The position numbers and the translations under genes were made by a program. A DNA stretch of 64,000 bases from Escherichia coli. Lineage in GTDB: Bacteria; Pseudomonadota; Gammaproteobacteria; Enterobacterales; Enterobacteriaceae. Below the pieces are notes generated by a model, which did no database searches, was not told the origin of the DNA, and saw nothing but the letters and a program-made list of their open reading frames with translations. This document shows, one piece after another, positions 1,655-61,741 of the stretch. The stretch lies in NCBI RefSeq assembly GCF_009931435.1, contig NZ_CP043414.1; one strand, 5' to 3'. Position 1 is the stretch's first letter; each line of letters starts with the position of its first letter.

Positions 1655-1691
1655 TTTTTAGGCTGTTTCCACAATTTGTAATATCATTCAG

Positions 1692-1720
1692 GACGGGCGC
1701 TTGCCCGTCTTGTCATTTTT
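1692..1720 (+). terminator. Intrinsic terminator downstream of metQ
   Basis: Hairpin GACGGGCGCttGCCCGTC followed by TTGTCATTTTT. Confidence 0.6.
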
Positions 1721-1771
1721 ACAAGCTCCTGATTCAATATTGACGTTTTGATCATACATTGAGGAAATACT

Positions 1772-2880: not shown

Positions 2881-2990
2881 ATTCGCGCCCTTCTCTTTTG
2901 ACATTTCTTTTGCACTGGTAAACTAAATCACTTTTTTTGTCCCAGGCTCGCCTTGAGCCTGCTCTACCTTCCAACTGGAACCGTAACAAC

Positions 2991-29990: not shown

Positions 29991-30011
29991 CAGGCGGCTC
30001 CTTTTCGATAA

Positions 30012-30863
30012 TTAAGACTGCTTGGACATCGCAGCAACTTCTGCTGCAAAGTCAGTCTCAACTTTCTCGATGCCTTCACCTACTTCGAAGCGGATGAAGC
30101 CAGTCACTTCAGCGTTATGCTCTTTCAGCAGCTGACCAACAGTTTTGCTTGGTTCCATAACGAACGGCTGACCGGTCAGAGAAACTTCGCCGGTGAATTT
30201 CTTCATGCGGCCTTCAACCATTTTCTCTGCGATTTCTTTCGGCTTACCAGACTGCATCGCGATATCCAGCTGAACCTGGTATTCTTTCTCTACCACTTCA
30301 GCGGAAACGTCTTCCGGTTTGATGAATTCTGGTTTGCTTGCAGCAACGTGCATAGCGATGTGTTTAACCAGCTCTTCGTCAGCGCCTTTAGCAGCAACCA
30401 GAACGCCGATACGCGCACCGTGCTGATAAGAACCCAGAACGTCGCCTTCCAGCGCAGCAACGCGGCGAATGTTGATGTTTTCACCGATTTTCGCTACCAG
30501 CGCAACACGTTCTTCTTCGAACTGTGCTTTCAGAACTTCAACGTCAGTGATTTTGCCAGCAACAGCTGCGTCCAGAACTTTGTCTGCGAACGCCTGGAAA
30601 CCAGCGTCTTTTGCAACGAAGTCAGTCTGGCAGTTAACTTCCAGAATGATGCCGTAGTTGCCGTCGATTTTGGTTTTGATCACGCCGTCAGCAGCAACGT
30701 TGCCTGCTTTTTTCGCTGCTTTGATAGCACCGGACTTACGCATGTTTTCGATTGCCAGCTCGATGTCGCCGTTAGCTTCAGTCAGTGCTTTTTTGCAATC
30801 CATCATGCCTGCGCCAGTACGCTCACGCAGCTCTTTTACCAGGGATGCGGTAATTTCAGCCAT
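30012..30863 (-). CDS. tsf: Elongation factor Ts
   Basis: 283-aa [30 protein letters not shown]...; recognised EF-Ts. Confidence 0.97.
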
Positions 30864-30918
30864 TCTAAAATCCTCGGAGATGTGATCTGCCCGGCGTTAA
30901 ACCGCACAGATATAAAAG

Positions 30919-30946
30919 TGAAAAAGGGGGCCATATGCAGGCCCCC
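30919..30946 (-). terminator. Attenuator-type intrinsic terminator in rpsB-tsf intergenic region
   Basis: Minus strand: GGGGGCCtgcatatGGCCCCC perfect 7-bp GC stem followed by TTTTTCAC, just upstream of tsf start. Confidence 0.65.
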
Positions 30947-31030
30947 TAACCAAACGTGTACTACCTGGTCTATAAGGGCTCTCCCCCCTTCATATTTCGC
31001 GCCGCAGATGCGTTGTCTTCGCTCGCTCAT

Positions 31031-31070
31031 CCCGGTCACTTACTGATGTAAGCTCCCGGGAATTCTCGAG
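31031..31070. repeat. boxC-like imperfect palindromic repeat in rpsB-tsf spacer
   Basis: CCCGGTCACTTACTGATGTAAGCTCCCGGG palindrome; 3' arm continues into CCCGGGAATTCTCGAG. Confidence 0.5.
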
Positions 31071-31121
31071 CTTGCCGCCTTTCTGCAACTCGAACTATTT
31101 TGGGGGAGTTATCAAGCCTTA

Positions 31122-32069
<948 letters not shown>

Positions 32070-32214
32070 TCAGACGATGAATTTTCTATTATAGAAAACG
32101 TTCAGTGGCACGTTTGGCGAAATTCAGAATGATTCTCAATTTGCCCGGGTGTGATACCATTGACGACACTTACATATATATTGTCGGTATCACCGACGCT
32201 GATGGACAGAATTA

Positions 32215-33009
32215 ATGGCTATCTCAATCAAGACCCCAGAAGATATCGAAAAAATGCGCGTCGCTGGCCGACTGGCTGCCGAAGTGCTGGAAATGATCGA
32301 ACCGTATGTTAAACCGGGCGTCAGCACCGGCGAGCTGGATCGCATCTGTAATGATTACATTGTTAATGAACAACACGCGGTTTCTGCCTGCCTCGGCTAT
32401 CACGGCTATCCGAAATCCGTGTGTATCTCTATTAATGAAGTGGTATGCCACGGTATCCCTGACGACGCCAAGCTGCTGAAAGATGGCGATATCGTTAACA
32501 TCGACGTCACTGTAATCAAAGATGGTTTCCACGGCGATACCTCAAAAATGTTTATCGTCGGTAAGCCAACCATCATGGGCGAACGTCTGTGCCGCGTAAC
32601 GCAAGAGAGTCTTTACCTGGCGCTGCGCATGGTAAAACCGGGCATTAATCTGCGCGAAATCGGTGCGGCGATTCAGAAATTTGTCGAAGCAGAAGGCTTC
32701 TCCGTCGTTCGTGAATATTGCGGACACGGTATTGGTCGCGGCTTCCACGAAGAACCGCAGGTGCTGCACTATGACTCCCGTGAAACCAACGTCGTGCTGA
32801 AACCGGGGATGACCTTCACCATCGAGCCAATGGTCAACGCGGGCAAAAAAGAGATCCGCACCATGAAAGATGGCTGGACGGTAAAAACCAAAGATCGCAG
32901 CTTGTCTGCACAATATGAGCATACTATTGTGGTGACCGATAACGGCTGCGAAATTCTGACGCTACGCAAGGATGACACCATCCCGGCGATAATCTCGCAC
33001 GAAGAATAA
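32215..33009 (+). CDS. map: Methionine aminopeptidase
   Basis: 264-aa ORF MAISIKTPEDIEKMRVAGRLAAEVL...; recognised Map; divergent from rpsB. Confidence 0.96.
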   Translation: MAISIKTPEDIEKMRVAGRLAAEVLEMIEPYVKPGVSTGELDRICNDYIVNEQHAVSACLGYHGYPKSVCISINEVVCHGIPDDAKLLKDGDIVNIDVTVIKDGFHGDTSKMFIVGKPTIMGERLCRVTQESLYLALRMVKPGINLREIGAAIQKFVEAEGFSVVREYCGHGIGRGFHEEPQVLHYDSRETNVVLKPGMTFTIEPMVNAGKKEIRTMKDGWTVKTKDRSLSAQYEHTIVVTDNGCEILTLRKDDTIPAIISHEE

Positions 33010-33052
33010 GATGAAGCCGGCGAATGCCGGCTTTTTTAATACGATAATTTAA

Positions 33053-35743
<2,691 letters not shown>

Positions 35744-35773
35744 TGTGTTTACTGATATGAAAAGAGTTTAACA

Positions 35774-36598
35774 ATGCAGCAGTTACAGAACATTATTGAA
35801 ACCGCTTTTGAACGCCGTGCCGAGATCACGCCAGCCAATGCAGACACCGTTACCCGCGAAGCGGTAAATCAGGTGATCGCCCTGCTGGATTCCGGCGCAC
35901 TGCGTGTAGCGGAAAAAATTGACGGTCAGTGGGTGACGCATCAGTGGTTGAAAAAAGCGGTGCTGCTCTCTTTCCGTATTAATGATAATCAGGTGATCGA
36001 AGGGGCAGAAAGCCGCTACTTCGACAAAGTGCCGATGAAATTCGCTAACTACGATGAAGCACGTTTCCAGAAAGAAGGCTTCCGCGTCGTGCCACCAGCG
36101 GCAGTGCGTCAGGGCGCGTTCATTGCCCGTAACACCGTGCTGATGCCGTCTTACGTCAACATCGGCGCATATGTTGATGAAGGCACCATGGTTGATACCT
36201 GGGCGACCGTCGGTTCCTGTGCGCAGATTGGTAAAAACGTCCACCTTTCCGGTGGCGTGGGTATCGGCGGCGTGCTGGAGCCGCTGCAGGCTAACCCGAC
36301 CATTATTGAAGATAACTGCTTCATCGGCGCACGCTCTGAAGTGGTTGAAGGGGTGATTGTCGAAGAAGGTTCCGTCATCTCTATGGGCGTATACATTGGT
36401 CAGAGCACCCGTATTTACGACCGTGAAACCGGCGAAATCCACTACGGTCGCGTTCCGGCGGGGTCTGTGGTTGTGTCAGGTAATCTGCCGTCGAAAGATG
36501 GCAAATACAGCCTCTACTGTGCGGTTATCGTTAAGAAAGTTGACGCGAAAACTCGCGGCAAAGTTGGTATTAACGAACTGCTGCGTACCATTGACTAA
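35774..36598 (+). CDS. dapD: Tetrahydrodipicolinate N-succinyltransferase
   Basis: 274-aa [27 protein letters not shown]..., hexapeptide repeats; recognised DapD. Confidence 0.96.
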
Positions 36599-36609
36599 AA
36601 GTATGTACA

Positions 36610-36640
36610 CGGGCAGCACGACGCTGCCCGATTGCTTTCT
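36610..36640 (+). terminator. Intrinsic terminator downstream of dapD
   Basis: Hairpin CGGGCAGCacgacGCTGCCCG followed by ATTGCTTTCT. Confidence 0.6.
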
Positions 36641-36910
36641 GGTTCAGAATAATTCGTCCTACTCATTCTTCTTCCCCTTTTTTAAATACTTTTTCATCTT
36701 GTTTCGGACTGTCATGTAATTCGCAAAACAAAGATAAATGTGCTAATCCATCCCATGGAATATCGCCAGAATAAAGCAGGTAATTTTTTGATTTTTACGC
36801 CATGATAGAAGTCTGGAAGAAAAAGGCTTTCTGCGATCACAGTCGAGCCGGGCGGGCCAGGCCAAATGCTAAAATAAGCACAATTTACTGACTCATTTTG
36901 AGGTAACGCT

Positions 36911-37297
36911 ATGTACGACAATCTGAAAAGTCTGGGTATTACCAATCCTGAAGAAATTGATCGTTACAGCCTCCGGCAGGAAGCCAACAACGATATTCTG
37001 AAAATCTATTTCCAGAAAGACAAAGGCGAGTTTTTCGCCAAGAGCGTGAAATTTAAATATCCACGTCAGCGCAAAACGGTCGTCGCTGATGGTGTGGGTC
37101 AAGGTTATAAAGAAGTACAGGAAATCAGCCCGAACCTGCGGTATATCATTGATGAACTTGATCAAATCTGCCAGCGTGACCGCAGCGAGGTCGATCTTAA
37201 GCGTAAGATCCTCGACGATTTACGTCACCTGGAATCAGTCGTCACTAACAAAATCAGCGAGATTGAAGCCGATCTGGAAAAACTGACGCGTAAATAA
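36911..37297 (+). CDS. yaeH: UPF0325 protein YaeH
   Basis: 128-aa [24 protein letters not shown]...; recognised YaeH. Confidence 0.9.
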
Positions 37298-37310
37298 TGT
37301 CATTCTGTGG

Positions 37311-37345
37311 GCCGGGTAAAGTCTCACCCGGCTGTAATTTTGTAA
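37311..37345. terminator. Bidirectional terminator between convergent yaeH and cdaR
   Basis: Hairpin GCCGGGTaaagtctcACCCGGC flanked by T-rich (TGTAATTTTGT) sequence. Confidence 0.55.
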
Positions 37346-37350
37346 TCGAC

Positions 37351-38508
37351 CTACCGCTCTTCATCTAGTTGCAGCGCCACATACAGCAGCAACCTGTCAT
37401 CAAAATTGCCCAAATCAAGCCCGGTCAGTTCCGATATACGATTAAGCCGATACTCAAGAGTATTACGATGAATAAACAACGCCTTTGACGTTGCCAGCGG
37501 TTGCACATTGTGGCGAAACCACGCCGCCAGCGTTCGCCGCAGCAAGCCGTTATTGTCCATCGCTTTCAGCCGCGCCAGCGGTCGCGCCAGTTCGTTGGCC
37601 TGCCAGTCGCCACGCAAACTGTCTAGCAACACAGGCAACATCAAATCCTGATAAAAATAGCAGCGACTTTCGGGCATCCGCTGTTTACCCACCACCATCG
37701 TCGTTTTCGCCGTACGATAAGAGCGGGCAATACTGCCTGGTCCGGTAAAATAGTTACCCAGCGAAACGCGAAAACGTAGCTGACCATACTCTTTCATGCG
37801 GGCAATCAGTTGTTCAACTCGCTTACGATGATCTTCTGCATCCCAGCGCCCAAACGAATTCAACGCCGGTTTCAACACCACCATTTCGGTCAGTGAAACA
37901 ATCGCCACCAGATTATTACGCTCGGGCGTAGTCAGCGCGTTTTGCAGTTGCTGTAACTCCGCCATTGCGCTATCCACGCCAAGTTGACCGCTATCGACCT
38001 CAACAATAGCCACCACTCGCGGTTGATTGAGATCGATCCCCAACCGTTGCGCCCATTCAGTGAGTGCGGGAGTATTCTCCTCCGCCTGAATCAGGTTCAT
38101 CACCAACTCTTCCCGCAAACGGCTATCCTGCGCCAACAGATGCATCAACCGCGACTGTTCCAGCATCATTTCAGCCGTCATGCAGACCAGTTCGCCATAT
38201 TTACGCAGATTCTCTGGTTCACCAGTCAGGCCGATTACGCCGACAATTTCACCTTCCAGCCGTAATGGTAGATTAATCCCCTGCCGCACACCGTGCAGAT
38301 GACGTGCCACCGCGTCATCGATATCGACGACTCGTCCCTGTGAAAGTACCAGCAATGCACCTTCGTGCAATTCACCAATACGCTCACGATCGCCGCTGCC
38401 GATAATACGCCCGCGGGCATCCATTACGTTAATATTGGTATCAATGATGCGCATGGTGCGCGCCACGATATCCTGCGCCATTTTGGTATCAAGATGCCAG
38501 CCAGCCAT
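37351..38508 (-). CDS. cdaR: Carbohydrate diacid regulator CdaR (SdaR)
   Basis: 385 aa from MAGWHLDTKMAQDIVARTMRII..., C-terminal PucR-type HTH; ORF track adds 6 codons upstream. Confidence 0.9.
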   Translation of the reverse strand: MAGWHLDTKMAQDIVARTMRIIDTNINVMDARGRIIGSGDRERIGELHEGALLVLSQGRVVDIDDAVARHLHGVRQGINLPLRLEGEIVGVIGLTGEPENLRKYGELVCMTAEMMLEQSRLMHLLAQDSRLREELVMNLIQAEENTPALTEWAQRLGIDLNQPRVVAIVEVDSGQLGVDSAMAELQQLQNALTTPERNNLVAIVSLTEMVVLKPALNSFGRWDAEDHRKRVEQLIARMKEYGQLRFRVSLGNYFTGPGSIARSYRTAKTTMVVGKQRMPESRCYFYQDLMLPVLLDSLRGDWQANELARPLARLKAMDNNGLLRRTLAAWFRHNVQPLATSKALFIHRNTLEYRLNRISELTGLDLGNFDDRLLLYVALQLDEER

Positions 38509-38626
38509 AAGTCCTCCGTTATGCACGGCTTAGCATAAGGAAGTACGTAACGTACGGCATTGTGCAAATGCCCAAAGGATGAGGAAGATGTATGGAGTTG
38601 TGGTGAAGTTCACAGATTGTAAGGAG

Positions 38627-38656
38627 AACCCCTTCCCGTTTTCAGGAAGGGGTTGA
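38627..38656 (-). terminator. Putative terminator downstream of degP
   Basis: CCCCTTCCcgttttcaGGAAGGGG 8-bp stem between degP stop and cdaR start; weak U-tract. Confidence 0.5.
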
Positions 38657-38662
38657 GGAAGA

Positions 38663-40087
38663 TTACTGCATTAACAGATAGATGGTGCTGTCGCCGCGCT
38701 GAATATTCAGTGCCAGCACAGACGGTTTGCTGTCGAGAACTTTACGCAGTTCAGCGATGTTTTTCACTGCCTGCTGGTTCGCACCAATAATCACATCACC
38801 TTTCTTCAGGCCGATCTGCGCAGCTGGAGTGCCCGTTTTCACGTTGTTCACCACCACGCCCTGATCTTTGCCTTTGTTGCTCATCTCAGCGCCTTCAATG
38901 CCGTTGAAGATGGTGCTGGAATCAACCTGATTCTGGCTGCTCTGCTGCAGTTCCAGGTTCACGTTAACCTGCTTCCCGTCGCGCAGTAAGCCCAGGGTCA
39001 GTTTGCTGCCTACCGGCATAGTGCCCACCTGAGCACGCAGTGCGGCAAAGCTGCTGATTGGCTTACCGTTCAGTGAGGTGATCACATCACCCGCTTTAAT
39101 GCCCGCTTTCGCGGCGGAAGAATTCGGCAGAACCTGGCTTACGAAAGCACCGCGCTGGGCGTCAACTTTCATCGCTTTCGCCAGATCGGAGTTCAGCTCA
39201 GTCCCCATAATACCCAGCTCACCGCGTTTCACCTGGCCGTATTCCACCATCTGCGAGGTCAGGTTTTTCACCATGTTACTCGGGATAGCAAAACCGATAC
39301 CGATGTTGCCGCCGTCCGGTGCGAGGATCGCGGTGTTGATACCGATCAGTTCGCCGTTCAGGTTAACCAGCGCACCACCGGAGTTACCACGGTTGATCGC
39401 AGCATCGGTCTGGATGAAGTTTTCATAGTTTTCGGCATTCAGACCGCTACGCCCCAGCGCAGAGACAATCCCGGAAGTTACCGTCTCACCCAGACCAAAC
39501 GGGTTACCAATTGCTACGGTGTAATCACCCACGCGCAGTGCATCAGAATCCGCCATCTTAATTGCGGTCAGATTTTTCGGGTTCTGGATCTGGATCAGCG
39601 CGATATCAGAGCGCGGATCTTTGCCAACCATCTTCGCGTCGAACTTACGACCATCGCTCAGCTGGACTTTAATCACCGTCGCGTTATCAACAACGTGGTT
39701 GTTGGTGACGACATAGCCTTTATCGGCATCAATGATGACGCCGGAACCCAGCGCCATGAATTTCTGTTGCTGGCCGCCGCCATTACCGCCCTGGCCCCCC
39801 TGGCAGAACGGAGAGCTCTGGAACGGAGAACCTTCCTGGCAGAACGGAGAATCATCACCGAAGAACTGCTGGAAATTACGCGGCATACGCGGCGTATTAA
39901 CGGTTGTGCTACCTTCTACGTTAATGCTGACCACTGAAGGCATCACCTTTTCGAGCATCGGTGCAAGGCTTGGCATCTGCTGGGCTGTCGTTGCTGAAGA
40001 AGTCTCAGCCGCCGTTGCAGAGAGCGGAGATAACGCCAAACCTAAACTCAGAGCCAGTGCACTCAGTGCTAATGTGGTTTTTTTCAT
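38663..40087 (-). CDS. degP: Periplasmic serine endoprotease/chaperone DegP (HtrA)
   Basis: 474-aa ORF, signal peptide, GNSGGAL catalytic serine motif, Q/G-rich linker, two PDZ domains. Confidence 0.96.
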   Translation of the reverse strand: MKKTTLALSALALSLGLALSPLSATAAETSSATTAQQMPSLAPMLEKVMPSVVSINVEGSTTVNTPRMPRNFQQFFGDDSPFCQEGSPFQSSPFCQGGQGGNGGGQQQKFMALGSGVIIDADKGYVVTNNHVVDNATVIKVQLSDGRKFDAKMVGKDPRSDIALIQIQNPKNLTAIKMADSDALRVGDYTVAIGNPFGLGETVTSGIVSALGRSGLNAENYENFIQTDAAINRGNSGGALVNLNGELIGINTAILAPDGGNIGIGFAIPSNMVKNLTSQMVEYGQVKRGELGIMGTELNSDLAKAMKVDAQRGAFVSQVLPNSSAAKAGIKAGDVITSLNGKPISSFAALRAQVGTMPVGSKLTLGLLRDGKQVNVNLELQQSSQNQVDSSTIFNGIEGAEMSNKGKDQGVVVNNVKTGTPAAQIGLKKGDVIIGANQQAVKNIAELRKVLDSKPSVLALNIQRGDSTIYLLMQ

Positions 40088-40129
40088 GTATTTCAGTCTC
40101 GATTAACAGATAACGCAAAATTGCTGTGT

Positions 40130-40162
40130 TCTTCAGATTCGTTTTATAGCGCGAAGTTCCGA
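40130..40162 (-). promoter_or_regulatory. Sigma-E (RpoE) promoter of degP
   Basis: Minus strand GGAACTT (-35, 40154-40160) - 16 nt - TCTGA (-10, 40133-40137), matching sigma-E consensus and known degP promoter architecture. Confidence 0.7.
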
Positions 40163-40179
40163 ACTAAAGTTTCTGCAAA

Positions 40180-40207
40180 AGGTAAAAATTTATTGTTCGT
40201 CTTTACA
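40180..40207 (-). promoter_or_regulatory. Putative CpxR binding region upstream of degP promoter
   Basis: GTAAA pentamers on both strands (GGTAAAAATTTATTGTTCGTCTTTAC) at expected distance upstream of sigma-E promoter. Confidence 0.4.
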
Positions 40208-40216
40208 AAAGCCTGG

Positions 40217-41734
40217 TTATTGTTCTACGGCCATCAGACGTCGGTATTCATCCCAGGCATAGAGGTCGGTCATACCGCTGATATAATCCTGCAGCAGGCG
40301 GCAACGGTAATAATATTCCCATAGCGGAAACTCAGGAGAATCTGACGGTAATTTACTGACAGCCTCGACATAGGCCAGCCGATGGCGCGTCGAGAGTTTG
40401 TGGAATAAGCGCGATTCAATAGGGAAACGTTTCACCCGTTCTTTTTCTACCAGTTCAGTAAAGTCTGATAACGACAGGCTTAATAAAGGGCGATAAATCT
40501 CTAATAATCCGCTAATGACCCGATAGCCCTGCAATTCAAGCTGCTCGACATCTGGATGGCTAAACACATGTTTTACAGCGACATTTTTATATAGCTTTAG
40601 AAGATCGCTGCATTCGCTGGCATCTTCCAATAATGCATGATTAAACGTTCCGGCGAAAATCGCAGGCAGATTATCAATAAATCGTTGTGCCGCGTAGGGT
40701 ACCAGTTTATTTAGGGTGTTTACCCGTAAATACATAAAAAACTGATCTTCCGTACTGCGGCTTAAACTATTTGAGCGTGATTTTTCCCAGGCATTTTCAA
40801 CCACCAGCGAAAAGAGCGAACCTTTCTCATGCTGGCCCCACGCTTCGTGCAAATGATGATAAAGCTGCTCAACGCTGAATATTCTTTTCTCTACCGCATC
40901 TTCAAGATCTGCCACACAATAGGAGATGTCGTCGGCAGCTTCCATAATCCACGTTAATGGAAAACGACTGTAAAGCGCCAAATTAAGTTCTTTACGCAAC
41001 CGGGCAATATAGGCTTCTTCAGAAAGATAATAACCCGGCTTTTTCATTAAATAGTGATGTGTCTCAGGCGTTTCACCACGCCACCACGCCGGACGAGTAT
41101 ATTTTAAAATACCGCCAACCTGTGCCCAGGTGAGATTCATCCGCATCAATGTATGCACCAGACGAATGCCTTGTGCATTCCCCTCAAAATGACATAAGTC
41201 CTGACGTATTTTGCGCCGCAGCTCGTTAAGCGGTTCTTCCCCGTCCCGTAAACGTAGTGCTGCCACGCTGCAGCGATCGTCAGTCAGAGGCTGGCTTTCG
41301 GCATCAGCCGGATACAAACGCTGGCGAAACCAGTCATTTATCGCCGCTTCGCCAAAATGGCCAAACGGCGGATTGCCGATATCGTGCATCAGGCATGACA
41401 TCTCAACAATACTTTCAAAAGGGCCGGTCAGTTCATCCAGACCATACTCTTCCAGTAATTTAAGCTCTTTCAGACGGCTTAAAATTTCTTTGGCGATGTA
41501 GCGCCCCACCTGCTGGACTTCCATTGAATGGGTAAGACGCGTGCGCACGGCGGCATTTCGCTCCAGCGGAAAAACCTGGGTCTTTTGTTGCAGACGACGA
41601 ATTGCCGGAGAGTTGATAATACGCCCGCGATCGCTCTCAAAGATTCGCAGGATCTCATGTTCGGTTTTAACGCCCTGTGGTGAACGGTAACGACGATGCC
41701 AGTTTATTTTTTTTCGGAAATCAATCTGTGCCAT
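40217..41734 (-). CDS. dgt: dGTP triphosphohydrolase
   Basis: 505-aa ORF with HD-domain motifs ([11 protein letters not shown]); recognised Dgt. Confidence 0.95.
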
Positions 41735-41817
41735 GTCCTCTCCCGCGTGAGAAATACGCTTCCCCGTAAGCGCATGGTAAACTATGCCTTCAAATCGGGC
41801 TTATCGCGAGTAAATCT

Positions 41818-42516
41818 ATGAAAATCGGCATCATTGGTGCAATGGAAGAAGAAGTTACGCTGCTGCGTGACAAAATCGAAAACCGCCAAACTATCAGTCT
41901 GGGCGGTTGCGAAATCTATACCGGCCAACTGAATGGAACCGAAGTTGCGCTTCTGAAATCGGGCATCGGTAAAGTCGCTGCGGCACTGGGTGCAACTCTG
42001 CTGTTGGAACACTGCAAGCCAGATGTGATTATTAACACCGGTTCTGCCGGTGGCCTGGCGCCAACGCTGAAAGTGGGCGATATCGTTGTCTCGGACGAAG
42101 CACGTTATCACGACGCGGATGTCACGGCATTTGGTTACGAATACGGTCAGTTACCTGGCTGCCCGGCTGGCTTCAAAGCTGACGATAAACTGATCGCTGC
42201 CGCTGAGGCCTGCATTGCCGAACTGAATCTTAACGCTGTACGTGGCCTGATTGTCAGCGGCGACGCTTTCATCAACGGTTCTGTTGGCCTGGCGAAAATC
42301 CGCCACAACTTCCCGCAGGCCATTGCTGTAGAGATGGAAGCGACGGCAATCGCTCATGTCTGCCACAATTTTAACGTCCCGTTTGTTGTCGTACGCGCCA
42401 TCTCCGACGTGGCCGATCAACAGTCTCATCTTAGCTTCGATGAGTTCCTGGCTGTTGCTGCTAAACAGTCCAGCCTGATGGTTGAGTCACTGGTGCAGAA
42501 ACTGGCACATGGCTAA
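41818..42516 (+). CDS. mtnN: 5'-methylthioadenosine/S-adenosylhomocysteine nucleosidase
   Basis: 232-aa [27 protein letters not shown]...; recognised Mtn/Pfs. Confidence 0.95.
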
Positions 42517-43309
42517 GTCACTGTTCAGGGCGCTGGTCGCCCTGTCTTTTCTCGCCCCTCTGTGGCTCAACGCCGCACCGCGCGTCATCACGCTTTCACC
42601 CGCCAACACTGAACTTGCTTTTGCCGCCGGGATCACGCCGGTTGGGGTCAGCAGTTATTCCGACTACCCTCCACAAGCGCAAAAGATTGAGCAGGTTTCA
42701 ACCTGGCAGGGGATGAATCTCGAACGCATTGTGGCCCTTAAACCCGATCTGGTGATTGCCTGGCGTGGAGGTAATGCCGAGCGGCAGGTTGGCCAGTTAG
42801 CTTCGCTGGGAATAAAAGTGATGTGGGTCGATGCGACAAGCATTGAACAAATTGCCAATGCGTTACGTCAACTGGCCCCCTGGAGTCCACAACCAGACAA
42901 GGCCGAACAAGCCGCACAATCCCTGCTGGACCAGTACGCACAATTGAAAGCGCAATATGCTGATAAACCTAAAAAACGTGTTTTTCTGCAATTCGGCATT
43001 AATCCGCCATTTACCAGTGGAAAAGAGTCGATTCAAAACCAGGTACTCGAAGTTTGTGGCGGAGAAAACATCTTTAAAGACAGCCGGGTTCCCTGGCCGC
43101 AAGTTAGCCGCGAACAGGTGTTAGCACGCGCGCCACAGGCGATTGTCATTACAGGCGGACCGGACCAAATTCCTAAAATCAAACAATACTGGGGTGAACA
43201 GCTCAAAATTCCCGTTATTCCTCTCACGAGTGACTGGTTTGAACGTGCAAGCCCACGTATTATCCTCGCTGCACAACAGCTCTGTAATGCGCTTTCACAG
43301 GTAGATTAG
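42509..43309 (+). CDS. btuF: Vitamin B12-binding periplasmic protein BtuF
   Basis: 266 aa from [26 protein letters not shown]...; start overlaps mtn stop by 8 nt. Confidence 0.93.
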
Positions 43310-43346
43310 CGCCTGATCTTTTCAGGTGCTCAGTGGGGATTGAACA

Positions 43347-43970
43347 ATGCTCGTCTATTGGCTGGATATAGTCGGCACAGCGGTATTTGCCATCTCCGGC
43401 GTTTTGTTAGCCGGAAAATTGCGTATGGACCCTTTTGGTGTTCTGGTACTGGGCGTGGTTACCGCAGTAGGCGGCGGGACAATTCGCGACATGGCGCTGG
43501 ATCACGGCCCGGTCTTTTGGGTGAAAGATCCCACCGATCTGGTTGTTGCAATGGTGACCAGCATGCTGACGATCGTGCTGGTGCGCCAGCCAAGACGCTT
43601 ACCGAAATGGATGTTGCCGGTGCTGGATGCCGTTGGTCTGGCGGTGTTTGTCGGCATTGGCGTGAATAAAGCCTTTAATGCGGAAGCCGGTCCGTTAATC
43701 GCGGTTTGTATGGGCGTCATTACTGGCGTTGGCGGCGGGATCATTCGTGATGTACTGGCCCGCGAAATCCCCATGATTTTACGCACAGAAATCTACGCAA
43801 CGGCCTGTATTATCGGCGGTATTGTCCACGCTACGGCTTATTACACATTTTCCGTACCACTGGAAACAGCCAGTATGATGGGCATGGTCGTGACGCTATT
43901 GATTCGGCTGGCGGCTATTCGTTGGCATCTTAAGCTACCGACGTTTGCGCTGGATGAGAATGGGCGTTGA
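43347..43970 (+). CDS. yadS: UPF0126 inner-membrane protein YadS
   Basis: 207-aa hydrophobic ORF with two copies of a G-G-G-x-I-R-D motif (internal duplication). Confidence 0.88.
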   Translation: MLVYWLDIVGTAVFAISGVLLAGKLRMDPFGVLVLGVVTAVGGGTIRDMALDHGPVFWVKDPTDLVVAMVTSMLTIVLVRQPRRLPKWMLPVLDAVGLAVFVGIGVNKAFNAEAGPLIAVCMGVITGVGGGIIRDVLAREIPMILRTEIYATACIIGGIVHATAYYTFSVPLETASMMGMVVTLLIRLAAIRWHLKLPTFALDENGR

Positions 43971-43980
43971 AGAGAGAAGA

Positions 43981-44006
43981 TGTGCCGGATAGTTTATCCG
44001 GCACAT
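43981..44006. terminator. Bidirectional terminator between convergent yadS and erpA
   Basis: Perfect hairpin GTGCCGGATAgtttATCCGGCAC. Confidence 0.65.
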
Positions 44007-44016
44007 GAACAACAGA

Positions 44017-44361
44017 TTAGATGCTGAAGGAAGAACCGCAACCGCAGGTGCTTTTCGCGTTCGGGTTGGTCACGATGAAACGAGAACCTTCCAGACCTTC
44101 GGTATAGTCAACGGAACCGCCGACCAGATATTGCAGGCTCATCGGGTCAACCACCAGGCCAACGCCCTGTTTTTCGATGGTCATATCGCCTTCGTTCACC
44201 TGATCATCAAAGGTGAAACCATACTGGAAGCCGCTGCAACCGCCACCGGTGATATACACGCGTAATTTCAGATTCGGGTTATCTTCGTCAGCGATCAGGC
44301 TTTTAACTTTGTTGGCTGCTGCGTCGGTAAACTCCAGCGGCAGTGCTACGTCATCACTCAT
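44017..44361 (-). CDS. erpA: Iron-sulfur cluster insertion protein ErpA
   Basis: 114 aa from [20 protein letters not shown]..., C-terminal CGCGSSF A-type carrier motif; ORF track adds 11 codons upstream. Confidence 0.93.
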
Positions 44362-44442
44362 ATTTTGCTCCAAACGACATCGGCAATTGGGCAAATTCTA
44401 ACCCAATAATAATCGCCATTATCTAATACCCTGGTATTTCGT

Positions 44443-45882
<1,440 letters not shown>

Positions 45883-47526: not shown

Positions 47527-49509
47527 TTAACGGCTCTGCTTTCTCAACAAATAGATAAAATACGGCGCGCCGATAAAGGTCGACAGCAGCCCCGCTGGGA
47601 TCTGGAATGGAAACAGCACCATCCGCCCACACCAGTCAGCGAACACCAGCAACAATCCCCCTACCAGCGCCGAAATCACGATGTGCGGCATCGTCCGTCG
47701 AAAGCCCATCATCCGTGCGATATGCGGTGCCATCAGGCCAACAAAACTCAACGGCCCGATGGTCATTGTCGCGGTCGCCGTCAGGCAAGCCGCCAGCAGC
47801 AGTAGCGCAATTCGCGTCGGCGTCAGCGCCATTCCCACGGCTCGTGCGGTATCACCTCCCAGCGGTAAAATGGTCAGCCAGCGGCGGCACAGCGGGGTAA
47901 TCGCCAGCAAAATCACCATCACAATTCCGGTGCGCCAGACCTGCGCCTCGGTCGCGTTGTAGGTCGAACCGGAAATCCAGGTCAGCACTTGCGCCATTCG
48001 CGGGTCACCACTTGCCTGCAACATCATCAAAAGCATGGTGAACGCAGTACTTAAGGCCATCCCCGCCAGTAACATGCGGTGTGGGGAAAATCCACCGCGC
48101 CCGGCAGCGATCATAATGATCAACAGCGTCACCGCCGCGCCGAGACTGCCCGCGGGTAACAGCCAGCCAAAGGCATTACCCGGCACCAGAAACAGCATCA
48201 ACACCACACCAAACGCCGCGCCTGAACTAATCCCCAGCACTTCGGGGCTTGCCATCGGGTTTCCGGTCAGCCGCTGAATAATACAGCCCGCCACTGCCAG
48301 CATGATGCCCGCAAACAGTGCCGCCATAATTCGCGGCCAGCGCCAGGGCATTAAATCATCGAGCAGCGCCCCGCTCGCCCACGTCCAGCCGTGCGCATCA
48401 CGACCAAACGACAGCGCCACCACCACAGCAATTATCAGCAGCACACCGCCAGCAAGGGCAAACGCCAGCACATGTTGGCGTTCAGTCGCGACACGATCGT
48501 TGGCCTTCATATCCGGCGCACTGATGCTGCGTAAACGCGGCAGCAGCCACAGTAACAGCGGCGCACCTATCAACGCCGTCACCGAACCGGTAGAAACTTC
48601 CATCCACACGCGAGTCAGCCAGAGGATGATTTGATCGGAAAGCCAGAGGATCAGCGCACCAATCAGTGACGCCAGCAGCAGTCTTGGCAGCAGACGCCGC
48701 GCCCCCAGCATTTTTGCCAGCAGTGGCGCGAACAACCCGATAAAGCCGATAATCCCCACCGCGTTCACCAACAGAGCACTGATGACTATCGCCAGCGACA
48801 GCGCCGCCAGACGCGCGAGCGATAAGGCCAGCCCGAGATTACGCGCCACGCCATCATCAAGCCCCATCAGGGTTAATGGACGAAGTAGCAGTAACGTCAG
48901 CATCACGCCGCCCAGCAGCTGTGGCCATAAACGCTCAACGCCGCCCCAGTCGGTTTGCGTCAGCGTTCCGGTACTCCACAGGAACATGCTTTGCAGCTGG
49001 TCGTGATGGAAGATAACCAGTAGCTGATTAATTGCCCCACAATAAAGGCTCACCACCAGCCCCGCGAGGATCAGTGTTACCGGCGAAAGCCGTTTCCCCC
49101 ACGCGACGCCAAAGACAATTAAGCCAACAACGCAAGCCCCCGCCAATGCAGCAAACTGGCTCGCCATAGCACCAGGGATCGCCCAGAGCGTGGTGACGGT
49201 AATCCCCAGTTGCGCGCCTGTAGCAACGCCCAACGTCGTCGGCTCCGCCAGCGGGTTACGCAGCACTTGCTGAAATAGCACGCCCACCAGCCCCAGACCC
49301 GCGCCCACCAGCAGCGAAATCGCCAGACGCGGCAGCAAGCTGTAGTGAAAAATCATCTGCTCGATGACATCGATATCCGGCGACCAGGTGGCCTGCACCC
49401 ACTGGCTACGCGGCAGCGCCTGCGAGAAGTTCATCCAGGTTAGCATCGCTGCGGCAATCACCAGCAGCGCCAGCAATAACGCCGGGAAAAGCGCAATACG
49501 TTTACTCAC
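47527..49509 (-). CDS. fhuB: Ferric hydroxamate ABC transporter permease FhuB
   Basis: 660-aa ORF with duplicated permease halves; recognised FhuB. Confidence 0.95.
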   Translation of the reverse strand: MSKRIALFPALLLALLVIAAAMLTWMNFSQALPRSQWVQATWSPDIDVIEQMIFHYSLLPRLAISLLVGAGLGLVGVLFQQVLRNPLAEPTTLGVATGAQLGITVTTLWAIPGAMASQFAALAGACVVGLIVFGVAWGKRLSPVTLILAGLVVSLYCGAINQLLVIFHHDQLQSMFLWSTGTLTQTDWGGVERLWPQLLGGVMLTLLLLRPLTLMGLDDGVARNLGLALSLARLAALSLAIVISALLVNAVGIIGFIGLFAPLLAKMLGARRLLPRLLLASLIGALILWLSDQIILWLTRVWMEVSTGSVTALIGAPLLLWLLPRLRSISAPDMKANDRVATERQHVLAFALAGGVLLIIAVVVALSFGRDAHGWTWASGALLDDLMPWRWPRIMAALFAGIMLAVAGCIIQRLTGNPMASPEVLGISSGAAFGVVLMLFLVPGNAFGWLLPAGSLGAAVTLLIIMIAAGRGGFSPHRMLLAGMALSTAFTMLLMMLQASGDPRMAQVLTWISGSTYNATEAQVWRTGIVMVILLAITPLCRRWLTILPLGGDTARAVGMALTPTRIALLLLAACLTATATMTIGPLSFVGLMAPHIARMMGFRRTMPHIVISALVGGLLLVFADWCGRMVLFPFQIPAGLLSTFIGAPYFIYLLRKQSR

Positions 49510-50396
49510 GCTTTACCTCCAATAGCATTATCCAGAATACGCACAAAATGCATTGCCGAGAGCGTCGCACCATAAAACCAGACTGCGGGGACGCGCTGAA
49601 AGCGTCCGGCACGGACAAACGGCATGGCCTGCCACAGCGGGGTTGCCATTAGTGCGTCCATGTCTCTGCTGTTGTCGTGATCAAAACAGAGCACATCAAC
49701 GTCCTTATACGCTGCCAGACGATCGATACTGACGGCAGTACTGCCCCAGAAGTTGGTTTCTCCTTGCCAGGCATTTGGGATGCCGTACTCATCGAGAATT
49801 TCCTGGAACAGGCTGTTCGGGCCGAAGACCAGCATATGGCGCGGATCGATAAGTGTCGTCAGCAATAACGGGCGCGCACCACGCTTCACAAAGCGGGGTT
49901 TCATGCTGCGGATAAAGTCTTCATAGTGCGCTAAATGCGTTTCCGCTGCGCTTTGCAGGTTAAGTAAATCTGCCATTTCCGTCAGTGACTTACGCGCCAT
50001 CGCCAGCGGCTGTTTGCCGTCGCTGAAGTTAAATCCGCGCCCAGGCGCAATGCGTGCCAGCATTTCTGGTGAAGGGCCATACCCTGCCGACCAGACCATA
50101 AACGACGGTTTCATTTCGGTCAGCAGTTCAAGGTTAGGTTCTGTCCGCAAACCAACGTCAATCACTGAATCCGGCAATGGTGGCTCGCTGACCCACAGGC
50201 GATAGTTGATGGTATCCGCCACGCCGTAAGGTACGATGCCGAGCGCCAGCAGTAATTCCACCGGCAACCACTCCAGCGCCACAATACGATTGGGATCAAT
50301 AGCCGCCGCGCGGGCGGTATTCATCTGCCATAACAACGGAGAAAGCGCCATCGCTGTTAACAGTCGACGGCGCGTAATTAGAGGTAAGCTGCTCAT
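49506..50396 (-). CDS. fhuD: Ferric hydroxamate periplasmic binding protein FhuD
   Basis: 296 aa from ATG at 50396; overlaps fhuB start by 4 nt and fhuC stop by 1 nt (ATGA). Confidence 0.93.
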   Translation of the reverse strand: MSSLPLITRRRLLTAMALSPLLWQMNTARAAAIDPNRIVALEWLPVELLLALGIVPYGVADTINYRLWVSEPPLPDSVIDVGLRTEPNLELLTEMKPSFMVWSAGYGPSPEMLARIAPGRGFNFSDGKQPLAMARKSLTEMADLLNLQSAAETHLAHYEDFIRSMKPRFVKRGARPLLLTTLIDPRHMLVFGPNSLFQEILDEYGIPNAWQGETNFWGSTAVSIDRLAAYKDVDVLCFDHDNSRDMDALMATPLWQAMPFVRAGRFQRVPAVWFYGATLSAMHFVRILDNAIGGKA

Positions 50397-51193
50397 CAAT
50401 AAACAAAACTCACAGGTGCAGCACCCGCCGGATGCGGCAAAATACCCATCGGGATGCCATAAATCATTTCGAGGGTTTCGCCGCGCATAATTTCCGCAGG
50501 CGTTCCCTGAGCAATCATTTCACCGCCGCGCAGGGCGACCAGATAATCACAGTAACGCGCAGCCATATTGATATCGTGCAGCACGGCAATGACCGTCAGG
50601 CCACGCTCCTGACTTAAACGATGCACCAGCGCCAGCACATCAACCTGGTGGGCGATATCCAGCGCCGAGGTCGGTTCGTCGAGCAACAGACAACGGCTAT
50701 CCTGCGCCACCAGCATGGCGATCCACGCCCGTTGACGTTCGCCGCCAGAGAGGCTATCGACCAGCCGATGCGCCAGCGGTTTTAAGCCAACCAGCGAGAT
50801 AGCCTCTTCGACCTTTTCGCGATCTGCCGCGCCAAAGCGCCCCAGCGCGCCATGCCACGGGTAACGACCAATCGCCACCAGTTCACGCACCGTCATCCCT
50901 TCTGCCGGAGGAAGCTGCTGCGGCAAATAAGCCACTTTGCGAGCAAACGCTTTGCTGCTCCAGCTTTCCAGCGGCTGGGCATCAAGAAGAATCTCCCCTT
51001 CTGACGGTGGCTGATGGCGGCCCAACATTTTTAACAGCGTGGATTTACCAGAGCCGTTGTGACCAATCAGACCGGTCACTTTCCCGGCAGGAAAGGTTAA
51101 CGACAGCGGATGCAAAAGCGTGCGCCCGGGCACACGAAAGGAGATATTACGCAGTGCAAAAGTGGTATCGGAATGATTCGTGTATTCCTGCAT
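50396..51193 (-). CDS. fhuC: Ferric hydroxamate ABC transporter ATPase FhuC
   Basis: 265 aa from MQEYTNHSDTTFALRNISFRV..., Walker A GHNGSGKST; ORF track adds 14 codons upstream. Confidence 0.93.
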   Translation of the reverse strand: MQEYTNHSDTTFALRNISFRVPGRTLLHPLSLTFPAGKVTGLIGHNGSGKSTLLKMLGRHQPPSEGEILLDAQPLESWSSKAFARKVAYLPQQLPPAEGMTVRELVAIGRYPWHGALGRFGAADREKVEEAISLVGLKPLAHRLVDSLSGGERQRAWIAMLVAQDSRCLLLDEPTSALDIAHQVDVLALVHRLSQERGLTVIAVLHDINMAARYCDYLVALRGGEMIAQGTPAEIMRGETLEMIYGIPMGILPHPAGAAPVSFVY

Positions 51194-51243
51194 AACAGCC
51201 AACTTGTGAAACGGGCACGGAAATCCGTGCCCCAAAAGAGAAA

Positions 51244-53487
51244 TTAGAAACGGAAGGTTGCGGTTGCAACGACCTGACGTTCTGCGCCCCAGAAGCAGCC
51301 ATAGGTATTAAAGCAGCTGGCGACGTATTCACGATCGAACAGGTTGTTGACATGCAGCGCCACGTTGGAGCCAGCCATGCCGACCCGCGCCAGATCATAA
51401 CGCACTAACGCATCCACGACCGTATAACTTCCCACTTTAAAGGAGTTAGCCGGATCACCATAGCTGGAGCCAGTATAACGACCACCAGTACCCAGCGTCA
51501 GGCCAGAAAGCGGACCATCAAAGAAGGTGTAGTCAGCCCACAGCGAAGCCATATGTTTTGGCACCTGCGCAGGCGTATTGCCTTTATAGGTAGTGTCGGT
51601 GGTGTATTCTGCATCGGTGTAAGTATAAGAACCAACTACGTTAACACTCGCCGACAGCGCCGCTTTCGCTTCGATTTCTACGCCACGCGCGCGGATTTCA
51701 CCACCTTCAACCGAGAAGAAGGAACCCTCAGGGTCCGCCATCAGGTTGTTGGTTTTAGTGAGATTATACACAGCACCAGTAACCACAATTGGGCGATCTT
51801 CCGGTACATATTTCACGCCGACCTCATACTGCTTACCTTTAGACGGCGCAAAAATATTACCATCCTTCCCAACTTGTGAAGAAGGTTCAAACGATTCGCT
51901 ATAGCTGAAGTAAGGTGTTACACCATTATCAAACAGGTAGTTAACACCACCACGCCAGGTAAACTGTTTGTCATCACGTTTATCGGTCGTCCCTTCAACG
52001 CGGTTATGAGACTCTTGATCCGCCCAGTCATAACGACCGCCCAGGGTGACCAGCACTTTATCCCACTGCGCCTGATCCTGAACATAAACACCCGTTTGTT
52101 TCTGCTTATTCAGAATGCGGTAAGGGCCGGAGTTTGCCGGATCTTTCGCATTGAAGTCGAAATCGGTATTCACCGGATTGTACAGATCGAGCAGCGGTAC
52201 GGAGTCGTCGTAACCAAACCAGGCGTTGATGTCATTACGCATACGCATAAAGTCGACACCGGTCAGCAGAGTGTGGTCGATATCGCCAGTGGCAAACTTG
52301 CTCTGCAACTGGGTATCAACGGAGAAGTTTTGCAGCTTCTCATCATCAACGACGTATTTACGTGCCAGGTAGTGACCTTTATCGGCTGGCGCTAAAGCGG
52401 CACACTGTTTGCTGTAAGCATTCGCCGGATCGGAGCAGACGCCGTAACCATAAACGCTGTTTTGCGAGGTTTTGTTTTCAGCAAAGCGCAGGTTCTGACG
52501 CACAGTAAAGGTGTCGTTAAATTCGTGATCGAAGCTGTAGCCCACCATCTTCTCATTACGAGAATAGGTGTTGTTCTTCGCCCCTTCGTTAAAATCTGTC
52601 GGCAGACGCTTACCGTTCGGCAGCGGCTCAACGGTTCCCTCTTTCGGCAGCCAGCCGTAATAACCGGTTTCCGGCTCGTTCTGGAAGTAAGAAAGGAAGG
52701 TGAAATTGGTTTTATCATCCGGACGCCAGGTAAACGCTGGCGCAATGGCATAACGCTGCTCTTCCGCGCCCTTTTGCTGGGCATTGGCAGAGCGCGCCAG
52801 TCCGGTCAGACGATAAGAGTAAACGCCGTCATCATCCAGCGCATCGCTAAAGTCGAAACCGGTCTGGAACAGGCTGTCTGTGCCCGCTTTAAATTGGATT
52901 TCTTTCAGCGGTTCGGTGGTTGGGCGCTTGCTGACCATATTTAACAGGCCGCCAGGGCTACTTTTACCGTAAAGAACAGAAACAGGGCCACGCATAATTT
53001 CAGCGCGTTCCAGCATATACGGGTCAATAACTGCATCGTTATAGAAGTTGCCTTGCAACTTCAGACCATTCAGATAGTTATTCTGGCTTTGGCCTTCTGC
53101 TGCAAAACCACGAATAATCAAATGATCATAAGTGTTTGATGCACCACGCGTACCGACCGAAACGCCTGGCGTATAGCTAAGCGCTTCTTTTACTGACTTA
53201 GGCTGATGCAGCGCCATTTCTTCGGCAGTGACAACAGAAATTGACTGCGGCACTTTTTGAATCGGTGTATCGGTTTTGGTGCCGGTAGCGGACTGTCGCG
53301 CCGCAATAGTTGCAGCTGGCCCCCATGCGCTTTCTTGCGGCGCTGGTGCAGCGGTAACGGTGATAGTGTCTTCTTTCGGTTCAACCGCTGCCTGTGCATA
53401 AACAGACATGCCGCTAACCGCTGTGGCTACTACAACTGCGATTTTACGCAGTGAGTGTTTTGGCTGAGCAGTTTTGGAACGCGCCAT
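51244..53487 (-). CDS. fhuA: TonB-dependent ferrichrome outer-membrane receptor FhuA
   Basis: 747-aa ORF, signal peptide, TonB box (DTITV), C-terminal ...ATATFRF; recognised FhuA. Confidence 0.96.
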   Translation of the reverse strand: MARSKTAQPKHSLRKIAVVVATAVSGMSVYAQAAVEPKEDTITVTAAPAPQESAWGPAATIAARQSATGTKTDTPIQKVPQSISVVTAEEMALHQPKSVKEALSYTPGVSVGTRGASNTYDHLIIRGFAAEGQSQNNYLNGLKLQGNFYNDAVIDPYMLERAEIMRGPVSVLYGKSSPGGLLNMVSKRPTTEPLKEIQFKAGTDSLFQTGFDFSDALDDDGVYSYRLTGLARSANAQQKGAEEQRYAIAPAFTWRPDDKTNFTFLSYFQNEPETGYYGWLPKEGTVEPLPNGKRLPTDFNEGAKNNTYSRNEKMVGYSFDHEFNDTFTVRQNLRFAENKTSQNSVYGYGVCSDPANAYSKQCAALAPADKGHYLARKYVVDDEKLQNFSVDTQLQSKFATGDIDHTLLTGVDFMRMRNDINAWFGYDDSVPLLDLYNPVNTDFDFNAKDPANSGPYRILNKQKQTGVYVQDQAQWDKVLVTLGGRYDWADQESHNRVEGTTDKRDDKQFTWRGGVNYLFDNGVTPYFSYSESFEPSSQVGKDGNIFAPSKGKQYEVGVKYVPEDRPIVVTGAVYNLTKTNNLMADPEGSFFSVEGGEIRARGVEIEAKAALSASVNVVGSYTYTDAEYTTDTTYKGNTPAQVPKHMASLWADYTFFDGPLSGLTLGTGGRYTGSSYGDPANSFKVGSYTVVDALVRYDLARVGMAGSNVALHVNNLFDREYVASCFNTYGCFWGAERQVVATATFRF

Positions 53488-53509
53488 TGGTATATCTCTG
53501 ATGTAAAGT

Positions 53510-53545
53510 GAATGATAACGTAAACGAGAATGATTATTATAAAGA
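53510..53545 (-). promoter_or_regulatory. Fur box / iron-regulated promoter region of fhuA
   Basis: GAATGATAACGTAAACGAGAATGATTATTATAAAG: overlapping GATAAT/ATTATC hexamer arrays resembling Fur consensus, 20-60 nt upstream of fhuA start. Confidence 0.6.
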
Positions 53546-53665
53546 TGAGATAATATTCGAAACGCTGGCGGGTTCGCAAGCGGTACGCAATCTGAGCATT
53601 CCTGAGGGGTTAATAAACAATCAGATGAAAAGAAAGGGTTAATACTTTGGGTAGGATGTTATTTT

Positions 53666-53690
53666 ACCGGATGGCGACTCGCCATCCGGT
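53666..53690 (-). terminator. Strong inverted repeat downstream of mrcB (possible terminator; no U-tract)
   Basis: ACCGGATGGCGactCGCCATCCGGT, 11-bp perfect stem, 16 nt after mrcB stop. Confidence 0.4.
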
Positions 53691-53705
53691 ATGTCAGCTT
53701 AGACG

Positions 53706-56240: not shown

Positions 56241-56333
56241 GCTTTTTCTCCGCAATATTCAGGCGCAAAAGCCCGATTTTCTGTTCTTCTGTAACAAGAC
56301 AGAAGAAGATATCTCTCAAATTTACTTTGGTCT

Positions 56334-58763: not shown

Positions 58764-58836
58764 AAAACGCTCCAGAGGGTTAACATTCTTCGCGCCACAT
58801 TGTAGCATCGCGGTAATGCATAACCGAGTACCTCAC

Positions 58837-60086
<1,250 letters not shown>

Positions 60087-60263
60087 TAGAGTAAGTAACT
60101 GGTTAATTTACATTCTGGTCGCGTGCGCAAATACGCTTTTCCTCACACAGTTGTCAAGTGTTACGTTTAGATAATTGCTATCCGGAAAAGCTTCTGCTAT
60201 TTATAGCGGCCTCATTTTTCCCCCGAACATGGGGATCGATAGTGCGTGTTAAGGAGAAGCAAC

Positions 60264-60719
60264 ATGCAAGAAGGGCAAAACCGTAAAACATCGTCCCTGA
60301 GTATTCTCGCCATCGCTGGGGTGGAGCCATATCAGGAGAAGCCGGGCGAAGAGTATATGAACGAAGCCCAGCTGGCGCACTTCCGTCGTATTCTGGAAGC
60401 ATGGCGTAATCAACTCAGGGATGAAGTCGATCGCACCGTTACACATATGCAGGATGAAGCAGCCAACTTCCCGGATCCGGTAGACCGTGCAGCCCAGGAA
60501 GAAGAGTTCAGCCTCGAACTGCGTAACCGCGATCGCGAGCGTAAGCTGATCAAAAAGATCGAGAAAACGCTGAAAAAAGTGGAAGACGAAGATTTCGGCT
60601 ACTGCGAGTCCTGCGGTGTTGAAATTGGTATTCGTCGTCTGGAAGCGCGCCCGACAGCCGATCTGTGCATTGACTGCAAAACGCTGGCTGAAATTCGCGA
60701 AAAACAAATGGCTGGCTAA
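60264..60719 (+). CDS. dksA: RNA polymerase-binding transcription factor DksA
   Basis: 151 aa from [15 protein letters not shown]..., C4 zinc finger [25 protein letters not shown]; ORF track adds 6 codons upstream. Confidence 0.96.
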
Positions 60720-60747
60720 TTACAGCCGTTCCATCACGTTTACCACA

Positions 60748-60776
60748 GGCGGGAAATGCTCCCGCCTTATTTTTTG
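60748..60776 (+). terminator. Intrinsic terminator downstream of dksA, overlapping annotated gluQ start
   Basis: GGCGGGAaatgcTCCCGCC followed by TTATTTTTTG; gluQ first ATG (60756) sits in the loop. Confidence 0.65.
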
Positions 60777-61682: not shown

Positions 61683-61741
61683 GCTATGATTAGCCGCTAT
61701 TTTTTTGTCCTGAATGATGTTTGACACTACCGAGGTGTACT

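Follow-up and report, generated by a model that had tools for sequence, protein, structure and literature searches.

A common yaeI-less allele of the Escherichia dapD–yaeH interval, likely derived by loss from a yaeI–orfX module

Introduction

In Escherichia coli K-12 MG1655, the genes dapD (b0166), yaeI (b0164, 813 bp) and yaeH (b0163) stand in this order, with yaeI on the same strand as its neighbours and 1027 bp between dapD and yaeH. The Escherichia YaeI protein is a metallophosphoesterase with a Tat-type signal. Genomic SELEX has located a binding site for the RpoD holoenzyme in the K-12 spacer between yaeH and yaeI (PMC3946193). Variation in the presence of yaeI is already on record, because a pangenome study lists its orthologous group as accessory and significantly enriched in phylogroup A (PMC5422975). 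The evolutionary detail behind this variation—a module formed by yaeI and a second gene that we term orfX, its independent decay, and an allele found in more than one species—may not have been written up before; decay of such a module is an ordinary pattern for the accessory genome of E. coli.

Here we describe the dapD–yaeH interval in a 64-kb stretch of DNA, referred to as the window. Its initial annotation, which placed a K-12 yaeI gene between dapD and yaeH on the same strand, reported this gene as missing from a 312-bp gap with the dapD terminator hairpin, AT-rich DNA and a 29-codon ORF, and read the difference as a clean single-gene polymorphism in a window whose spacings otherwise mostly match K-12. 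The coordinates, a tblastn search and the MG1655 record bear out the missing gene and the K-12 arrangement, and all three components of the spacer were found (Table 1). A reference spacer of about 0.3 kb would have spoken against the annotation, but that of K-12 is the longer one given above. The parts concerning a clean event and a K-12-like setting required revision, as set out below.

Table 1. Features of the dapD–yaeH locus in the window
Feature	Position	Strand	Basis and remarks
dapD CDS	35774..36598	+	274 aa; ORF list; every matching E. coli record annotates it as dapD; flanks the polymorphic site on the left
dapD–yaeH spacer	36599–36910		312 bp exactly
23-codon minus-strand ORF	36666..36595	-	Preceded by a purine-rich Shine-Dalgarno-like sequence; probably not a gene
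dapD intrinsic-terminator hairpin, module type	36610..36630	+	GGGCAGC..GCTGCCC; terminator scan and allele alignment
Allele-specific 127-bp filler	36634..36760	no strand	Replaces the 842-bp yaeI segment of K-12; blastn breakpoints
Polypyrimidine tract TCTTCTTCCCCTTTTTT	36667..36686	no strand	Alignment of nine filler alleles
orfX 3'-end pseudogene remnant, ~17 codons	36740..36791	+	In-register comparison with intact orfX
orfX–yaeH spacer	36792..36910	+	Common to all Escherichia alleles; probably carries the yaeH promoter and RBS
29-codon ORF	36802–36891		Inside the orfX–yaeH spacer; ORF list; probably not a gene
yaeH CDS	36911..37297	+	128 aa, full-length DUF3461; Pfam PF11944, E = 2.4e-55; right flank
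Recombination patch with the yaeI-less allele	36430..37300 (approximate)	no strand	Mismatch counts per 125-bp bin

yaeI is replaced by unrelated DNA in the window

The initial annotation had proposed a tblastn search with YaeI as a check, and this search upheld the absence: K-12 YaeI has no match in the 64-kb window (best E-value 0.95, 22 bits). Comparison of yaeI with the window by blastn returned only words of chance length, and no translated match to phosphodiesterase YaeI (NCBIfam NF008460; Pfam Metallophos PF00149) was present across the 64 kb, with K-12 YaeI scoring 531 bits against NF008460 as a positive control. Pairwise blastn of the intergenic regions placed the breakpoints relative to K-12 at 36633/36634 and 36760/36761. 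To the left, the two sequences are common up to 36633, through the dapD stop codon, the hairpin and 'CCCGATT', and to the right, identity with K-12 is 179/180 from 36761 to yaeH. Between these points K-12 carries an 842-bp segment, made up of yaeI with 18 bp ahead of its ATG and 11 bp past its stop codon, and the window carries 127 bp (36634–36760) for which pairwise blastn found no K-12 counterpart.

The window thus shares with the MG1655 locus the genes on either side and the direction in which they run, as well as the dapD terminator hairpin and the last 150 bp before yaeH, but has 127 unrelated bp where K-12 has yaeI with its leader and 11-bp trailer. The left breakpoint falls inside the terminator T-tract, which is interrupted in the window (ATTGCTTTCT) and intact in K-12 (ATTTTTTTG); K-12 also lacks an extra 21 nt of the orfX tail, described below, that the window keeps. 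The difference is therefore a replacement-type indel rather than a clean excision. The earlier reading was correct insofar as this is a genuine polymorphism at a collinear locus, but not in calling it clean, since 842 bp correspond to 127 bp without a K-12 counterpart. Nor is the window especially K-12-like, its flanking genes being 94.9–97.3% identical to those of K-12.

Under the explanation that the initial annotation proposed, a single clean deletion removed yaeI from a K-12-like dapD–yaeI–yaeH arrangement. Collinearity of both flanks with K-12 and the resumption of common sequence 11 bp past the K-12 yaeI stop codon would agree with such an event, but it supplies no source for the 127 junction bp, which K-12 lacks, and it does not account for the orfX match in the last 21 of them. 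We regard it as extremely improbable.

Most complete E. coli genomes carry the yaeI-less allele

The annotation had also called for a survey of the locus across phylogroups to distinguish ancestral absence from deletion. Among 5,426 complete RefSeq E. coli genomes, the 127-bp filler occurs in 3,338 (~61%), in a single copy each, and is at least 99% identical in 331 of these; none of the 3,338 carries any annotation under it. K-12 yaeI was matched in 2,084 of the 5,426. Together these account for 5,422 of the 5,424 genomes with the locus and, judged from genome counts only, the filler and yaeI look mutually exclusive at this site. Since the filler outnumbers yaeI, K-12 holds the minority state and the yaeI-less allele is that of the E. 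coli majority; on the second half of the question, the evidence presented below favours derived loss from a module-bearing ancestor.

Direct inspection confirmed the absence of yaeI in CFT073, IAI39, IAI1, HS, an O157:H7 strain and SMS-3-5, which established assignments place in phylogroups B2, F, B1, A, E and F, respectively. These strains and ~3,300 others share the architecture of the window, with spacers of 311–314 bp: an unannotated filler lies between a module-type dapD terminator and the orfX tail. In strains such as CFSAN061763 the 127 bp of the filler are 100% identical to those of the window; the other yaeI-less alleles differ only by point differences and in the length of the polypyrimidine tract, and it is the flanking genes of the window that lie on a divergent backbone. 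The absence of yaeI in the window is therefore an ordinary, known accessory-gene polymorphism in which the laboratory reference holds the minority allele, and a reminder that a sequence can differ from K-12 without anything unusual having happened. Because most E. coli lineages, major pathogens included, lack yaeI, the gene is dispensable.

Three genomes carry other, rare variants. Strain 1506 (NZ_CP059288.1) has an IS1 insertion in yaeI, EC0026B (NZ_OX460316.1) has a truncated yaeI ~31 kb from yaeH, and BS-04 (NZ_CP172819.1) has only a partial filler.

Outgroup spacers and the yaeI–orfX module

For a wider comparison, one genome per species with YaeH was scanned, giving 80 loci, with E. fergusonii, Shigella and Salmonella outside the sample. 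In ~70 of these, all from non-Escherichia Enterobacteriaceae and including Citrobacter, Klebsiella, Enterobacter, Raoultella, Kluyvera, Cedecea, Kosakonia and Atlantibacter, the dapD–yaeH gap measures 109–125 bp and YaeI is absent. This spacer of ~110 bp is conserved across genera and has its own terminator (GCGGGGGC..CCCCGC) and a conserved TTTTCGTTAATTATTCA motif. The window shares with these genera a gene-free dapD–yaeH interval, but differs in length and terminator and does not have the TTTTCGTTAATTATTCA motif; in a MAFFT alignment of nine genera, homology to the window is confined to the last ~15 bp before the yaeH ATG. Its spacer is therefore not of the ancestral empty Enterobacteriaceae type.

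Within Escherichia, yaeI is present at the locus in E. albertii, E. whittamii, strain SCPM-O-B-8794 and Escherichia sp. MOD1-EC7003. The filler allele was found in Escherichia sp. E1V33 with 93.7% identity, and the yaeI-less allele thus also occurs outside E. coli. In MOD1-EC7003, an additional 236-aa ORF, orfX, lies between yaeI and yaeH. A copy annotated as hypothetical is present in E. coli GF43, the sole carrier among the 5,426 genomes. A protein search returned only 21 relatives. The orfX family is small, Cys and His residues are conserved in it and its predicted structure is confident; no relative was detectable in the PDB. The order dapD–yaeI–orfX–yaeH also occurs in E. albertii and in Pseudocitrobacter cyperus, and an Enterobacter sp. 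has dapD–orfX–yaeH, with orfX but without yaeI. With the exception of this one Enterobacter locus, yaeI lies directly upstream of orfX wherever orfX is intact. Even there a short stretch resembling the 5' end of yaeI seems to remain, on an unscored reading of the alignment.

The window retains the end of this module. In all intact-orfX loci compared (E. coli GF43, Escherichia sp. MOD1-EC7003, E. albertii, Pseudocitrobacter cyperus and an Enterobacter sp.), orfX ends in …PVPWGIA[RK]IKQVIF*, and both this end and the spacer that follows it are homologous to ~36740–36910 of the window, and the orfX–yaeH spacer of the window can be aligned as a homolog with those of P. cyperus and the Enterobacter sp. 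Translated in the frame of orfX, this part of the window reads C*SIPWNIARIKQVIF*, compared with CEPVPWGIARIKQVIF* for the intact gene. Of the 21 positions at 36740–36760, 14 agree with intact orfX in the window, versus 4, the chance level, for K-12 in the same register. Relative to the complete arrangement of GF43, MOD1-EC7003, some E. albertii and P. cyperus, the window keeps in recognisable form a module-type terminator, the orfX–yaeH spacer and, of orfX itself, the last ~17 codons; it lacks all of yaeI and ~93% of orfX, and its orfX fragment contains in-frame stop codons. Conversely, the intact orfX genes might be chimeras that read into a pre-existing spacer; this is unlikely, because the C-terminal residues of orfX are conserved in homologues that are just 33–60% identical.

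The module is not uniform in itself. Between GF43 and MOD1-EC7003, orfX is 95.7% identical and yaeI only 78.4%, and the yaeI–orfX module is therefore itself mosaic. At the P. cyperus locus, the yaeI position carries an annotated metallophosphoesterase.

Loss or ancestral absence

Because the window retains 21 nt of orfX that K-12 has lost, the window allele cannot descend from the K-12 arrangement; the stop-interrupted orfX fragment points to an ancestor that carried orfX and hence the module, with the loss of yaeI being secondary. On this comparison, the K-12 and window alleles are best read as independent decay products of dapD–yaeI–orfX–yaeH. We consider it highly probable that the allele in the window is the yaeI-less one common at this Escherichia locus, derived by loss from a module-bearing ancestor.

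The alternative is that absence is ancestral: the lineage of the window never had yaeI, and the K-12-type allele gained the gene by insertion into the 312-bp spacer. Several distributions speak for it, in that most Enterobacteriaceae lack yaeI at this site, the yaeI-less allele is that of the E. coli majority and occurs in five phylogroups (A, B1, B2, E and F), and YaeI is patchy, its next relatives outside a few enterics being 43–56% identical. Against these stand the spacer of the window, which is not that of the outgroups; the orfX fragment, module terminator and downstream spacer, which can only derive from a module-bearing state; the position of yaeI directly upstream of intact orfX in all loci bar the one in Enterobacter; and the presence of yaeI in basal Escherichia species. 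Weighing the two sides, we find ancestral absence decidedly improbable.

Returning to derivation by loss, the following sequence of events is proposed. In an ancestor of Escherichia, the short Enterobacteriaceae spacer would have been replaced by the module, with yaeI and orfX arriving jointly together with the terminator and the orfX–yaeH spacer; a few other enterics have this module at the same position. The K-12-type allele may then have lost orfX and kept yaeI, and the window-type allele may have lost yaeI and most of orfX, of which the last ~17 codons stayed behind, with ~106 bp of unassignable AT-rich DNA at the junction, presumably without phenotypic consequence. Both alleles would be old and would have passed from one lineage to another through homologous recombination within the conserved dapD and yaeH flanks. 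The orfX remnant and the filler account for an intergenic region of ~312 bp, versus ~110 bp in other genera. Given its historical link to yaeI, orfX could be a lead to the function of that gene.

In a more elaborate scheme, dapD–yaeH would be a recurrent cargo site at which YaeI and orfX act jointly (in the envelope or in phosphate metabolism), the module would have been lost piecemeal, and the filler would have a role of its own, such as control of read-through from dapD into yaeH. Taken as a whole, we consider this scheme improbable. The site does appear to take insertions repeatedly. In Enterobacter wuhouensis it holds a 762-aa ORF on the opposite strand (1461–3749 (-) of the locus extract), which on our own reading of the sequence may encode a molybdopterin oxidoreductase. 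In Enterobacter sp. BIGb0383, a lipoprotein-like 57-aa ORF occupies the site (3619–3792 (+) of the locus extract).

A recombination patch on a divergent backbone

The surroundings of the locus are divergent from all complete E. coli genomes searched. Over 15-kb stretches of the window (30000–45000 and 48000–63000), the best identity found among the 5,426 genomes was 98.2–98.8%, and over the mrcB–fhuA–hrpB stretch 4,820 genomes are only 90–95% identical to the window. The nearest records are R32_14_1F, MFDS1022581, E400634 and RMDEC465. This backbone may represent a divergent Escherichia lineage, for example a cryptic clade.

Counted in 125-bp bins, mismatches between the window and both MFDS1022581 and E400634 number zero at 35425–36425; divergence begins after ~36425, and few mismatches remain after ~37300. 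These two strains are yaeI-positive, with a yaeI haplotype 90.4% identical to that of K-12. The interior, ~36430–37300, is instead closest to RMDEC465, a strain with the filler allele, at 98.7%. The yaeI-less allele thus sits on a recombination patch of ~0.9 kb in a backbone whose closest relatives carry yaeI. From this mosaic it follows that alleles have been exchanged by homologous recombination through dapD and yaeH. The patch may reflect import of the filler into the lineage of the window or import of yaeI into its relatives.

Origin and possible function of the filler

The last 21 nt are the only part of the filler that is demonstrably orfX by sequence. The remainder, 36634–36739, has no significant similarity to yaeI or orfX. 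Its identity as decayed yaeI or orfX was tried in three ways and rejected as unproven: Smith–Waterman alignment to the MOD1-EC7003 module scored 41, versus 38.8 ± 4.8 for shuffled sequences; local alignment to nine module alleles gave z ≤ 2.4, with TCCCCTTTTTTAAATAC against TCGCCTTTTTTAAAGAC in yaeI as the sole recurring match; and chaining of collinear segments, with long gaps penalised only lightly, gave z from -0.4 to 2.0. A resemblance of 36634–36655 to the yaeI leader of E. albertii (~15/28 positions, counted by eye) is too weak to mark it as a remnant. These first ~106 bp could conceivably be a replacement by foreign DNA. No signature of an IS or transposon was found in 36450–37000, where direct repeats are absent and inverted repeats are short and at chance level; likewise, nothing brackets the yaeI segment of K-12, the junctions have neither IS-like terminal repeats nor target duplications, and the ORF list contains no transposase ORF.

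Across nine collinear filler alleles, the filler is conserved except in the polypyrimidine tract at 36667–36686, whose variable length makes it the main site of variation. Over the stretch from ~36680 to yaeH, divergence between E. coli and E1V33 is ~3% of sites, compared with 7–11% in the flanking genes (89–93% identical). An identity of ~97% over the filler and downstream spacer suggests recent introgression or selective constraint, either of which would fit better than simple neutral decay.

Such conservation raises the possibility that the filler is a functional element selected in place of yaeI, either as a yaeH regulatory region or through the 23-codon minus-strand ORF. Its retention across E. 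coli and another Escherichia species, at ~97% versus 89–93% for the flanking genes, speaks for this explanation, as does a mini-ORF that is intact in 8 of 8 alleles retrieved by pattern (nine were aligned, the pattern missing NT1N25) and has a purine-rich Shine-Dalgarno-like sequence upstream. However, the filler lacks a sigma-70-like promoter, no Rfam family reaches the gathering score, and none of the 3,338 RefSeq genomes has an annotation there; every difference within the mini-ORF (positions 6, 12, 20, 21 and 23) changes the amino acid; its Shine-Dalgarno-like region is the length-variable tract, and its C-terminal half is the reverse of the dapD terminator. Recent spread by recombination explains the high conservation equally well. 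A selected function is therefore very unlikely in our estimation. The mini-ORF itself was rejected as a gene candidate on conservation grounds, each difference altering an amino acid, and probably is not a gene.

In the spacer as a whole, scans for promoters, terminators and known RNAs found only the dapD terminator; the one Rfam signal is sroE on the terminator hairpin, with 22.7 bits against a gathering score of 51. The 29-codon ORF lies in sequence common to the window and K-12. Because its reading frame is broken in MOD1-EC7003 and cut short in Pseudocitrobacter cyperus, it probably does not represent a gene. As the sequence of the RpoD site in the K-12 spacer is retained in the window, the yaeH promoter is probably unaffected.

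Divergence and relatives of yaeI

Between Escherichia species, yaeI is 78–88% identical, versus 90.5–95.6% for dapD, and the gene thus diverges much faster than its neighbours. Genomes labelled E. coli contain at least three yaeI haplotypes: the K-12 type, the E400634 type (90.4%) and the GF43 type (80.9%). In Enterobacteriaceae outside Escherichia, YaeI is scarce, with Superficieibacter at 65%. The next named relatives are in metagenome-assembled genomes of Verrucomicrobiota (44–56%), and unnamed clusters reach 53–59%. This distribution is consistent with a horizontal origin of the module. In addition, YaeI has a partial, sub-threshold match to LpxG (122 bits against a cut-off of 350).
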